DNA of 63,565 bases, filler included, from Porpidia crustulata (Eukaryota): the NCBI GenBank assembly GCA_964255105.1. It is 6 parts of 6 records of this genome, joined end to end, with 100 filler letters (N's around TTAATTAATTAA, not from the genome) between each part and the next. Parts side by side here need not be neighbours in the genome. Positions count along the whole stretch, not along the records: positions 21,256 to 31,769 come from CAXUWE010000763.1; 5 more parts are not named here. One strand, given 5' to 3'. Positions 10,531-53,074 of this stretch are shown piece after piece. Every line of letters begins with the position of its first letter. Positions within the stretch are counted from its first letter, which is position 1. The notes under the pieces were generated by a model, which was given only the letters and a program-made list of their open reading frames with translations, was not told where the DNA came from and ran no database searches. The position numbers were made by a program, and so were the translations under genes.

Positions 10531-10630
10531 NNNNNNNNNNNNNNNNNNNNNNNNNNNNNNNNNNNNNNNNNNNNTTAATTAATTAANNNNNNNNNNNNNN
10601 NNNNNNNNNNNNNNNNNNNNNNNNNNNNNN
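10531..10630. other. Artificial contig linker (N44-TTAATTAATTAA-N44)
   Basis: 100-nt N block with a six-frame-stop core, identical at five positions. Confidence 0.99.
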
Positions 10631-21155: not shown

Positions 21156-21255
21156 NNNNNNNNNNNNNNNNNNNNNNNNNNNNNNNNNNNNNNNNNNNNT
21201 TAATTAATTAANNNNNNNNNNNNNNNNNNNNNNNNNNNNNNNNNNNNNNNNNNNN
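21156..21255. other. Artificial contig linker
   Basis: N block with TTAATTAATTAA core. Confidence 0.99.
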
Positions 21256-21533
21256 TTTGAATATACTCAAGCAAGACTGATTCTTCAGCGTTGGTGAGTA
21301 GTTTGTGGCTCCTAGATCGAGCTTCGGTGTAGGAGAGAGCTTCGTCTTTGAAGCGACGTGTAAGAGTTGTACGATGAACATTATACTTTTCAAAAGCAGC
21401 AGTGAAATCAGGAAGTTCCTGTGATCTTAAATCATTAATTGCTTGCTCTATAGCTTCTTCGTTGACCATTTTGGAGCGATTTGAACATAATGGTTGGATT
21501 TTGGTGGGGTGTGCGTTTAGTGTCGGATTACGT
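21256..21533 (-). mobile_element. 5' end of a pogo/Fot1-like (Tc1-mariner superfamily) DNA transposon: TIR plus start of the transposase (ATG at 21469)
   Basis: MVNEEAIEQAINDLRSQE..AAFEKYNVHRTTLTRRF..KLLTNAEESVLLEYI is a psq/CENP-B HTH start. The minus-strand terminus ACGTAATCCGACACTAAACGCACACCCC is flanked by TA (21534-21535). Confidence 0.88.
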
Positions 21534-21706: not shown

Positions 21707-21740
21707 GGGGGGTCTTGGGGGCTGTGGGGGGTGTGGGGGG
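21707..21740 (+). other. G-quadruplex-forming motif G6-N4-G5-N4-G6-N3-G6
   Basis: GGGGGGtcttGGGGGctgtGGGGGGtgtGGGGGG read directly. Confidence 0.7.
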
Positions 21741-21759
21741 AGTTGATGAGGTAGTGTGG

Positions 21760-22022
21760 CACGCGCCAGGCAAAAAAAGCCGCGCACCCAAAATTTCCCC
21801 ACCAAATTTACTACTGAATTTCAGGAGAACCTAAGAACAAAAGATCATTATCAACATCATAAAACCTCTACATAGGCCAAAACTCAGAGGGCTTTGAGAA
21901 TGAGGGCTGTCATTGACGACGAGGAAAAAATGAAGAGTTGTTAAAACAATAAATCTCCTGAAATTCAGTAGTAAATTTGGTGGGGAAAATTCCGGTGCGC
22001 GGCTTTTTTTGCCTGGCGCGTG
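21760..22022. mobile_element. 263-bp MITE with 69-bp TIRs (CACGCGCCAGGC...) and 5-bp TSD TGTGG
   Basis: TIRs at 21760-21828 and 21954-22022 match at 66/69; TGTGG at 21755-21759 and 22023-22027. Confidence 0.93.
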
Positions 22023-22845
22023 TGTGGTAGAGCATCCGTAGCCTGGAGTGCCTGGCACGACACCACTATTTAACGATACACCACCCTACATTAATCGTAC
22101 ACCCCTCCCTCCCAGCACTTGACCTGTCTTTACGCGTACAACCCCTTATGCTCGGAGAAGATGGAGAACGAAAGCGCGCGGCATGCATAAATTCGAGGCT
22201 TGAGATTATCGAATTTCAGCAGAATCTTCAGATCATCTCGAAGCAGCAAGATTCTATTCAGAAGCAAAGATTGAAGCATGACAGCACTGCTTCATTGAAA
22301 GTGTCGTTCATAGATCTTGATTGTAATAACTCCTTGCAGTGTTCTGCCTTTCCACAGAGTATTATTATTAAATTCAACCCTTCTAGATTCACTCTCTTGT
22401 TGTTCTCGATGATCTCGTTTCTACTTCGCTTATTTTGCTCGCTGTTTGAATCGCTTCGCCTGCCCGAATTCTACGTCTCCTCCATTCCCAGCATTAATAC
22501 GAGTCAAATCCAGGCCCAACGAAGACACTTTGCAAGGCAGTGTGCTATGATGTTGCAACGTTAGATTCCGCTGTGCCAATGAAATGATGATAATGCAGCG
22601 GCGCAGCGCGGAGGCCAATGCTGCCAATCCCGAATTGGACTAATCAGAAAGACGCATCCAAAATTGCCCGAGCGAAGGATCAAATTGGACAGCTATCTAT
22701 AAGGCTGTAGAATGGAAACCCTCCGCCAGTGCTCTCGTGCTACTTTCATGAACCGTCCAGCTGGCGCTTTTTGGTTGCTTTACCACCTCTTAAGGCATCG
22801 TCGGAAGGGTTCTACACTTGACTCCCTTGGCATTGCTTGAACAAG

Positions 22846-31769: not shown

Positions 31770-31869
31770 NNNNNNNNNNNNNNNNNNNNNNNNNNNNNNN
31801 NNNNNNNNNNNNNTTAATTAATTAANNNNNNNNNNNNNNNNNNNNNNNNNNNNNNNNNNNNNNNNNNNN
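31770..31869. other. Artificial contig linker
   Basis: N block with TTAATTAATTAA core. Confidence 0.99.
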
Positions 31870-32883
31870 GGATTGAACTTTAGAAAACACGGGTTGGCTG
31901 ATTCGGAATGTAGGTAGTAAGTAAAGCTTGGTATGAAAGAGGATGCGTTACGGTCTTACGGAAGGGAGTTGTGGAGGGGACGAGGGTCGGGGGAAAAGGT
32001 GTCGTAGAGCATTAAATCAAGCGATCTCATTAAATCTCTAATTAACATCAACCACATCGTCACGAAATATCCTCATACTCCTGATTTTGAAAGCCAACAG
32101 ATCGTCTCCATCTTTCAGAATGATCAGCGGTGACAGCCGATTGCTTTGCAGATCCAACGAGTGTATTTTGAGTAGTTATAAAGGCAAATCAGACGTCAGA
32201 GGAGTTCGAAAAACGAAAGATTAATGGACACGGTTCCATGAAACAGTGCTAGCAGTGAAATGAATACTCTACTAAACTTTAGAAGACCAAACGGTAGAAA
32301 ATTGATCGGTTTCCAAGAAATCTAGGATAATCGATCAATTTCGCGAATGAGACAGGGTCAAGTTTGGGATGCGGTGGAATGGATAAGATGTCGGTGGATG
32401 TTGATCTTAGAGTGGAGGAGCGGGAGGATGGTGGGATAGTAATTGACAAGACTGAATGAATAATTTCCGATTCTCTTCCCACAACGTCACCGAGTCCGAT
32501 GACATTGCAGCTTCCTGTTCTCAGGAGAACGTGACTGGCCACGGAGAACGCCTAGAGTTCCCGCAACACGACGAGTAAGCACTCTGACCCAGACTTCTCT
32601 TCTGCAAGGACTGTGGACCGTTGCAGAGGACAAGCTATGTTTCATCCTACCTGAACAGCTGTGTCGGTATAACCACGAAGGAATTCTTGTCGCTGGTAGA
32701 TGGGAATGTCGTAATTCACAGATCTGACGTAGTTGCGTTATGGGTGGTGGTACGATGATATTCGGATATCGTTGTGCGAGCCTATGAAGCGGCTGTTTTG
32801 CTGTTTCCATCATGGAGTAAACACCAAGCGCTTGCTGTCGTTGAATAATTGAATGATTGGATAATGGGATGACTGGACGATTA

Positions 32884-33205
32884 CAACCTATCCAGGGTAT
32901 CAGTTGTTAGTACGCTCGGCTAGCCTCTCTGCTAGCGTCTGATTCTCAATGTCAGAATATTCTGCCCCTAAGTCAGCAAATTTTGATCAATTACTCAACT
33001 ACATGCTCAAGCACCTGCTCAAGCATTTAATTAATTGCTTCAAATCGCCCATCTATCTATCTAACTTTCGGCTCATCTATTCAAGCCTTTATTGATTCAG
33101 AGAGAGAACATACAAGATTCTAAGGTAGATATACTGGCCATAAACGATATCGAATTGGGTATAGCCAAACGCCACGTACTAACAACTGATACCCTGGATA
33201 GGTTG
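32884..33205. mobile_element. Tc1/mariner-type MITE, copy 1 (322 bp)
   Basis: Perfect 31-bp TIR CAACCTATCCAGGGTATCAGTTGTTAGTACG (32884-32914 / 33175-33205), TA on both flanks. Confidence 0.93.
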
Positions 33206-33801
33206 TAGATCGGATACTCCGTCCGTAACGCGCCACTCACGCACTAGGAAAAGACGTTGCGCTAAGATTGAGAGGGTGTATAGAAGACCTCGACGATCGA
33301 CGATGGATGACACCCAAGCCACGTATGCTGCACAGCCACCGCAAGAATCTGGCTGGACGGGACGATGGATGATCTGCAAACGCAGAATGCGCCGTTGTGC
33401 TATTCGAAGCAGAGGCATAGACCTCTGTGATCGACGCGGTGCATATTTTGACCGTAAAGTGCGATGGAGATAGAATGCGAACGAACGTCTGATGATCACA
33501 ATCCAAATGCTTCTGCACTGCCTGTGTGACAGTGATGGTTTGTGCCGACTGTCGATTTGGATGGAATGGGTTAGTTCGGAGTACCAGGTATCAATGACGT
33601 CATCCGCAACCCTCCGCAAAACGACGGCTTGCCTATCGTAGCGGCAATAATCAACACTCCCGGTAATCCAACCGTCCGCACGCCATGGCGCTCTGGCTGC
33701 GAAAAACCCTCATTGCGATAAAAGTCCGACGATATTGTTCTCGAAGCTGTCTCAACTGTGGTTCAATCACATACAGAGCGGTGAGACTTCACGACAGTGT
33801 A

Positions 33802-34011
33802 CAACCTATCCAGGGTATCAGTTTTTAGTATGCTCGGCTAGTCCCCCTGCTAGCGTTTGATTTTCAATGTCAGAATCCTCGGCCCCTAAGTCAGCAAATT
33901 TTGCAGAGGAAGAACATACAAGATTTTAATGTAGATATACTGGTCGTAAACGATGTCAAATTGAGTATAGCCAAACGCCACGTACTAACAACTGATACCC
34001 TGGATAGGTTG
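33802..34011. mobile_element. Tc1/mariner-type MITE, copy 2 (210 bp, lacks a 112-bp internal segment)
   Basis: Same TIR (2 mismatches in the left copy), TA flanks, roughly 90% identical to copy 1 over shared parts by eye. Confidence 0.92.
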
Positions 34012-35279
34012 TAGGGTGATCAGAATTAGCGACTGTACCTCCGTGCCGACTATCACATCCAGACAGTTACGTCACCACCATGGTAAATTACCTCCCGGAC
34101 TCGAAATTGATGCAAATTTCCAGGAGGATCGCGAGGTAAATCTGGCTCGTTGTTACGTAACAACATGTGACGGACATAATAAGATTCGAACAGATAATTT
34201 GCTCTTATTGTCGGGCACTCCCAGGGAGAACACCTACCGGAGGATGCTCCATGTAGTCTGTAAAGGATCAGCGTATCAGCCACGATCCCCCGTGCCCCCC
34301 AGCAACCTTGCCAATCCATCGCACACCTGTCAGGGCCCGACTGTGGGCAAGGACGCGTTTACGCTCCGTGATTGGCGGGACTACTGCTGGGGAAGTTTGG
34401 CAAGAAATTGAAGAAGCGCGGAGGGTGTTGATGCCCCGTGCCGTCCTACCGCTAACGTAGCTGGAGCGAATTTGCCGTAGCGAGTGGAGTGCTGGAGTGC
34501 GTAATTTGCTGGTGGAAGTAGCGGATATTGTGGCTAACTCGAAGCAGACGTTGGAGAGGGTTTCACAGTTATCCTCGTGACCCTCGCGATCCCCGTAATG
34601 CAAAGTTTGTGTACTGAATTGTAGGGGATAGATAGTACAATGGGGGTAAACCACAGCATAATTGTTGAGTCATATTATTAAGACAACGATGCGCCGGTAC
34701 TGGCCAGGTATAGCCAAGTACTAGGCGACCTATCTAATGTGCGATAGGTACATGTGGTACATATTGAGCGAATAACATTGAAAGGTGCGGCGTTGCGTGC
34801 ACCGGTCATTAATGATGACGCTTGCTGGTTGCGTCATTTATCGACAGTCTACTTCGAACTAATAAGTCTATGGTGCCACGTTGAGCACAGAATACGGGCG
34901 CCCTGGGGTATCTCATGGATCGAAACGACTGGTTGCGAACAGGAAAGAAAGCACGTAGACACATGCTGCTGGTGAATTTATTAGGTTGCCGTGAAAGAGG
35001 CAGAGAGAGGTGGAGTTGAATGTTCATGCATATCGTATTCGTAAGAAATCGTTGCCCGTAGACACGTATATCGTCCCAGGTCAACGCCAAGCCCGAATGT
35101 CCAACTGAAAAAGCAAACGAATTCCATCAACCGATCCCTGGGTATATATCGCATTCTGAGCCAATCGAACCGGCCGTGAGCAGTTGTACGCCGTCGACGA
35201 CAGTGTTGACGTGAAAAACTCATCAAAATAAAACGGGGTATCATAGAACAAAGGAAATTCGCGCATGGGAGAAGTCGAT

Positions 35280-42372: not shown

Positions 42373-42472
42373 NNNNNNNNNNNNNNNNNNNNNNNNNNNN
42401 NNNNNNNNNNNNNNNNTTAATTAATTAANNNNNNNNNNNNNNNNNNNNNNNNNNNNNNNNNNNNNNNNNNNN
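42373..42472. other. Artificial contig linker
   Basis: N block with TTAATTAATTAA core. Confidence 0.99.
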
Positions 42473-52974: not shown

Positions 52975-53074
52975 NNNNNNNNNNNNNNNNNNNNNNNNNN
53001 NNNNNNNNNNNNNNNNNNTTAATTAATTAANNNNNNNNNNNNNNNNNNNNNNNNNNNNNNNNNNNNNNNNNNNN
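52975..53074. other. Artificial contig linker
   Basis: N block with TTAATTAATTAA core. Confidence 0.99.

Follow-up and report, generated by a model that had tools for sequence, protein, structure and literature searches.

A probable MITE with CAC...GTG ends and a 5-bp target-site duplication in a lichen-forming ascomycete

Fungal MITEs derived from Tc1/pogo elements (mimp-like) make TA duplications at their target sites. Mutator elements leave target-site duplications (TSDs) of about 9 bp and PIF/Harbinger elements TSDs of 3 bp, and solo-LTRs and integrase-type (Ginger) elements are bounded by TG...CA. According to a recent account of the EnSpm/Mirage/Chapaev/Transib (CMCT) clade, the members of this clade mostly possess CA..TG tips and make duplications of 2-5 bp; among fungal lineages, EnSpm combines CAC..GTG tips with 3-bp duplications, Plavaka duplicates 2-3 bp, and ESTA duplicates TA (PMC12730594, Kojima 2025). 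CMC-type transposases occur in Pezizomycotina, where Sly1-1 of Neurospora is an enzyme of this type and both Chaetomium and Coccidioides carry homologues (PMC4592977). The ends of Transib, the fourth member of the clade, consist of CACAATG, a 23-bp spacer and AAAAAAATC, and some families carry a 12-bp-spacer end. TIR positions 1-3 (CAC) and 34-35 (AA) are conserved across 21 Transib families, and the elements make distinctive 5-bp TSDs with a preference for GC-rich targets, as described by Kapitonov and Jurka 2005 (PMC1131882). We describe herein an element whose ends and footprint are best accommodated by the CMCT clade, and compare it with these and other systems.

The window, i.e. the whole stretch of 63,565 bases that was analyzed, is not a single locus. 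It is made up of six contigs arranged by decreasing length, from 10,530 down to 10,491 bp, and joined by N44-TTAATTAATTAA-N44 spacers at positions 10531-10630, 21156-21255, 31770-31869, 42373-42472 and 52975-53074. The KAR9 protein of the window is recorded on a contig of 10,502 bp, precisely as long as the fifth piece, which marks the pieces as distinct contigs of a single assembly. No DNA is common to any two of the six contigs, hence none of them provides a homologous or empty locus for another; because the contigs are separate and share no DNA, distances and neighbourhoods that span a spacer are meaningless. Fungus-specific Pfam domains are encoded in the window, including Fungal_trans, Fung_rhodopsin and KAR9. 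Among 120 listed relatives of the KAR9 protein, the closest is 71% identical, and all those named by organism belong to lichen-forming fungi (Lignoscripta, Hypocenomyce, Imshaugia, Psora, Puttea and Circinaria), which are presumably all Lecanoromycetes. These domains and the named relatives among the 120 therefore support the earlier designation of the host as an ascomycete. Muszewska et al. 2017 name the Lecanoromycetes among the fungal lineages that lost TE types (PMC5751038).

The element occupies positions 21760-22022 (263 bp), beginning with CAC and ending with GTG. An inverted-repeat search returned two arms of 69 nt each, the left TIR at 21760..21828 (+) and the right TIR at 21954..22022 (-), which match at 66 of 69 positions (96% complementary) and are separated by a core of 125 bp at 21829..21953. 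The outer 29 nt are the same in both arms and read CACGCGC, CAGGC, an A7 tract at arm positions 13-19, and then GCC...; in none of 100 shuffles was this 29-mer found twice. The arms differ at their positions 30, 31 and 34 and are otherwise identical, and such tight clustering (within 5 nt or less) is seen in 394 of 52,394 possible placements of three mismatches. The differences thus fit one event or a built-in asymmetry, not long decay. With an intact TSD and arms identical outside one 5-nt patch, a recent insertion is plausible, a single copy giving no age in itself.

The core is rich in A (55 of 125 bp, 44%) and non-coding, with stop codons in five of its six reading frames. No ORF overlapping the element matched a Pfam family. 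The sole open frame that runs through the element (P0125, 63 aa) has no relatives in either of two large protein collections: a word-based search returned nothing, and the lone HMMER match, P0126, is an unrelated translated tandem repeat. No tRNA was found in the element.

Directly outside the two tips, an exact TGTGG can be read on either side, at 21755..21759 on the left and at 22023..22027 on the right. When flanks of 1 to 12 bases are compared with the ends kept symmetric, they match at a length of five alone, and 5-mers at a 263-bp spacing match at 57 of 62,295 window positions (0.0009). The junctions themselves are GT-rich (...GTGTGG|CAC and GTG|TGTGG...), and other boundaries can be drawn: a 6-bp GTGTGG duplication appears if G22022 is taken as flank, which makes the tips asymmetric, and a 3-bp GTG duplication appears if each tip gains one unpaired base. 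The 5-bp reading was adopted because it is the sole one that leaves the inverted repeat perfect up to the tips. The initial annotation had described a 263-bp non-autonomous element with 69-bp TIRs, CAC ends, an A-rich core lacking coding signal and an exact 5-bp duplication, and each part of that description was reproduced by the inverted-repeat search, the composition and frame analyses, and direct reading of the junctions.

The element is probably a MITE, that is, a non-autonomous cut-and-paste DNA transposon that carries no gene and depends on a DDE-type transposase acting in trans. A transposase encoded elsewhere in the genome would bind the 69-bp inverted ends, cut exactly at the CAC...GTG tips, and link the 3' ends to target strands that had been cut five bases apart; repair of the resulting gaps would then produce the two copies of TGTGG. 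The domain scan of the window covered 100 of 129 ORFs of at least 95 aa, the other 29 all overlapping longer ORFs in another frame or on the other strand. Among the 100, no transposase domain was detected apart from a pogo/Fot1-type fragment described below, which agrees with the earlier proposal that the element's transposase is encoded away from it. Nor were further copies found in the window: a search with the 29-mer, allowing up to three mismatches, returned the two arms only, and when the element was compared with the window by word-7 BLASTN, it matched itself and, at chance level, stretches of at most 17 nt. The MITE assignment therefore refers to one copy in 63.1 kb of non-N sequence. 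Exact patterns of the element had no matches in a collection of prokaryotic genome contigs that holds no fungi. That the assembly runs straight through the element on a short contig hints weakly at a low copy number.

As to the enzyme, the combination of ends and footprint fits the CMCT clade best, a leaning that draws on three terminal bases and one duplication. The clade as a whole is tentatively favoured, at well below an even chance, and Transib proper would make up a small part of it. A hAT5-like origin is far less probable than the clade, and what remains falls to an undescribed or atypical family. The element shares with the clade its CAC..GTG tips and a duplication inside the 2-5-bp range, whereas none of the fungal lineages described there duplicates 5 bp, the footprint being 3 bp in EnSpm, 2-3 bp in Plavaka and TA in ESTA (PMC12730594). 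Within the clade, a 5-bp stagger is a Transib-like trait.

The alternative that survives best, possible although rather doubtful, is a MITE of the CMC (EnSpm/CACTA) type or of a related undescribed fungal lineage, with either a true 5-bp duplication or a 3-bp duplication masked by the GT-rich junction. The tips of the element are those of fungal EnSpm, and TSD length is known to vary inside superfamilies, e.g. among hAT5, hAT6 and hAT7 or within Plavaka (2-3 bp) (PMC12730594); the presence of CMC transposases in Pezizomycotina, noted above, points the same way, as does the 3-bp GTG duplication obtained by adding an unpaired base to each tip. Against this, the 3-bp flanks of the CAC..GTG tips read TGG and TGT and thus mismatch, and flanks of two and four bases also fail. 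Moreover, the 3-bp reading depends on a G...T mismatch just beyond the repeat and leaves the exact 5-bp match to a chance of 0.0009. The tips begin CACGC, unlike the CACTA of that group, and no partner transposase is present in the scanned window ORFs. A study of fungal transposases placed the expansion of CMC mainly in Agaricomycetes, Pucciniomycotina and Mucoromycotina (PMC5751038).

The initial annotation had preferred a non-autonomous Transib/RAG-like element, moved by a RAG1-like transposase encoded elsewhere in the ascomycete genome, a reading that we now regard as improbable. It was reached with a list of duplication lengths (TA, TTAA, 3 bp, 8 bp and about 9 bp) for common ascomycete elements that left out both hAT5, with its 5-bp TSD, and the CMCT clade, with its CA..TG ends and 2-5-bp TSDs, both given in PMC12730594. 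In its favour stand the exact 5-bp duplication together with CAC tips on both arms, and a mild GC enrichment of the target: the reconstructed 35-bp site is 51% GC and the 15-bp site 53%, compared with 46% for the contig. Transib transposases have also been reported in one fungus, soybean rust (PMC1131882). However, CAC is all that the element has of a Transib end. Its heptamer, CACGCGC, agrees with CACAATG at three of seven positions, and at none of the four beyond CAC; the conserved A-A at TIR positions 34-35 is replaced by AT in the left arm and TT in the right. With a 12-bp spacer, the nonamer (positions 20-28) would be GCCGCGCAC, and neither the 12-bp nor the 23-bp spacing is followed by an A-rich nonamer block. 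As had already been cautioned, the A7 tract is much nearer to the terminal heptamer than expected of an RSS nonamer, at a distance of only 5 bp. Both arms are 69 bp long, without an asymmetry of the 12/23 type, whereas the Transib consensus is 38 bp. The scan of 100 of the 129 window ORFs showed no RAG1-like domain, there is a single insertion to judge from, and Transib is given as 'Absent' in 1,730 fungal genomes scanned with a RAG1 profile (PMC5751038).

Still more unlikely is a hAT-derived MITE of the hAT5 type. Families with 5-bp TSDs do exist there (PMC12730594, citing Repbase Reports 2007), and hAT is one of the DNA transposon groups that form the core set in fungi (PMC5751038); the likeness to the element, however, is limited to the 5-bp duplication. 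Across 22 hAT families the ends have as their third base 'always G', as worded in a figure legend (PMC1131882, Fig. S7), and hAT is disfavoured here because that base is C in the element. Both hAT5 (5-bp) and hAT6 (6-bp) are placed in an animal hAT lineage (PMC12730594), and the canonical 8-bp flanks differ, TAGTGTGG on one side and TGTGGTAG on the other.

It is equally improbable that no transposon is involved, and that a local inverted duplication, a hairpin locus or an assembly artefact happens to be flanked by a coincidental 5-bp repeat. The structure is single-copy in the window, its GT-rich flanks make short matches likelier, and the surrounding DNA is repeat-rich and close to the end of a contig. 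There is also a sub-threshold Rfam match to the plant miRNA precursor family MIR8565 at 21777-22005 (-), whose 56.9 bits (E = 3.5e-09) fall short of the gathering score, 136. That score, however, reflects the long stem only. The inverted repeat stops precisely where the duplication starts, the empirical rate of 5-mer matches given above is low, and clean arms of 69 bp around a unique 125-bp loop have the layout of a MITE, unlike that of a fold-back assembly chimera. The MIR8565 match does not speak for a miRNA gene either, the long perfect stem being the best account of its score.

The remaining superfamilies can be dismissed on their footprints, Tc1/mariner/pogo having no TA at junctions that read GG|CAC and GTG|TG, and Mutator and PIF/Harbinger being ruled out by 9-bp and 3-bp flanks that differ. 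A solo-LTR or integrase-type (Ginger) footprint was rejected because the tips of the element are CA...TG instead of TG...CA. IS3EU was likewise set aside: it has 6-bp TSDs and TAYGG tips (PMC12730594), whereas the tips here are not TAYGG and a 6-bp match is obtained only with asymmetric ends. In size class, long inverted ends, lack of coding capacity and TE-rich surroundings the element resembles the fungal Tc1/pogo-derived MITEs, yet these make TA duplications and it has TA at neither junction.

Folded as single-stranded DNA, the probable MITE reaches -89.7 kcal/mol (z = -18.5), a value equalled by none of 200 shuffles. An arm by itself folds into three small sub-palindromes (z = -3.4; one of 200 shuffles equal), the first 31 nt of the arm give z = -1.5, and the core (z = -0.64) has a structure no better than chance. 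In the outermost palindrome of the arm, which adjoins the CAC tip, a GC stem of 7 bp encloses the A7 tract (within 21760-21828; mirrored within 21954-22022), and the arm differences at positions 30-34 fall between the first two palindromes. The palindromes could be protein-binding sites. A transcript across the element would form a 69-bp hairpin; that such a hairpin feeds RNA silencing is speculation.

Taken as a MITE, the element adds one more fungal MITE family, from the poorly studied lichen-forming Lecanoromycetes. Within the limited coverage of open-access text, no ascomycete TIR family that duplicates 5 bp was found to have been described. Beside the 2025 account of the CMCT clade, the only other fungal match to '5-bp TSD' came from a fission-yeast genome paper, which presumably concerns LTR elements. 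The combination of ends and footprint is accordingly one for which we found no described ascomycete counterpart, a gap that may reflect limited searching. Should the 5-bp duplication prove family-wide and be accompanied by a RAG1-like or a new 5-bp-stagger DDE enzyme in Ascomycota, the group ancestral to V(D)J recombination would have a wider range, and with a Transib-type enzyme in particular the published statement that fungi lack Transib would need revision. That a Transib-type (RAG1-like) or sister CMCT transposase with a 5-base stagger is active in this lichen-forming ascomycete is a slim prospect, and under that reading, with as little likelihood, CAC together with the GC hairpin around an A7 loop might be a diverged counterpart of the heptamer-spacer-nonamer. 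With a partner of an ordinary kind, be it CMC, hAT or another enzyme, the element would amount to routine annotation.

The element starts 505 bases into the third contig, at a repeat-rich contig edge. Outside it, at 21257..21469 (-), protein similarity identified the start of a pogo/Fot1-type (Tc5 HTH) transposase gene, namely its N-terminal 71 codons. Four proteins align with 100% of this query at 66-72% identity, and P0001, one of the four, carries PF03221, HTH_Tnp_Tc5; the 71-codon fragment itself has no Pfam match. Because the end of the contig cuts this gene, the break apparently falls within a repeat. The element is located 290 bp upstream of the gene's ATG. Kinship with the adjacent pogo-type element was rejected, the sole stretch common to the two being 10 nt, at chance level. 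Four runs of G5-6 spaced by 3-4 bases, potentially G-quadruplex-forming, lie at 21707-21740, 15-50 bp to the left of the insertion point, and this tract may be part of the end region of the pogo-type element. Directly to the right of the element is a 177-codon open frame, 22031-22561 (+), which belongs to no Pfam family and has its best match to DUF4957 at E = 0.025.

A second MITE family, sharing no sequence with the element, is present on the fourth contig in two copies with 33-bp inverted ends, at 32882-33207 (326 bp) and 33800-34013 (214 bp). The shorter copy is internally deleted, and the common parts are 90-92% alike. This family is of the Tc1/pogo type, because TA is found at all four junctions, and together with the pogo-type fragment it shows that cut-and-paste elements reside in this set of genome contigs.
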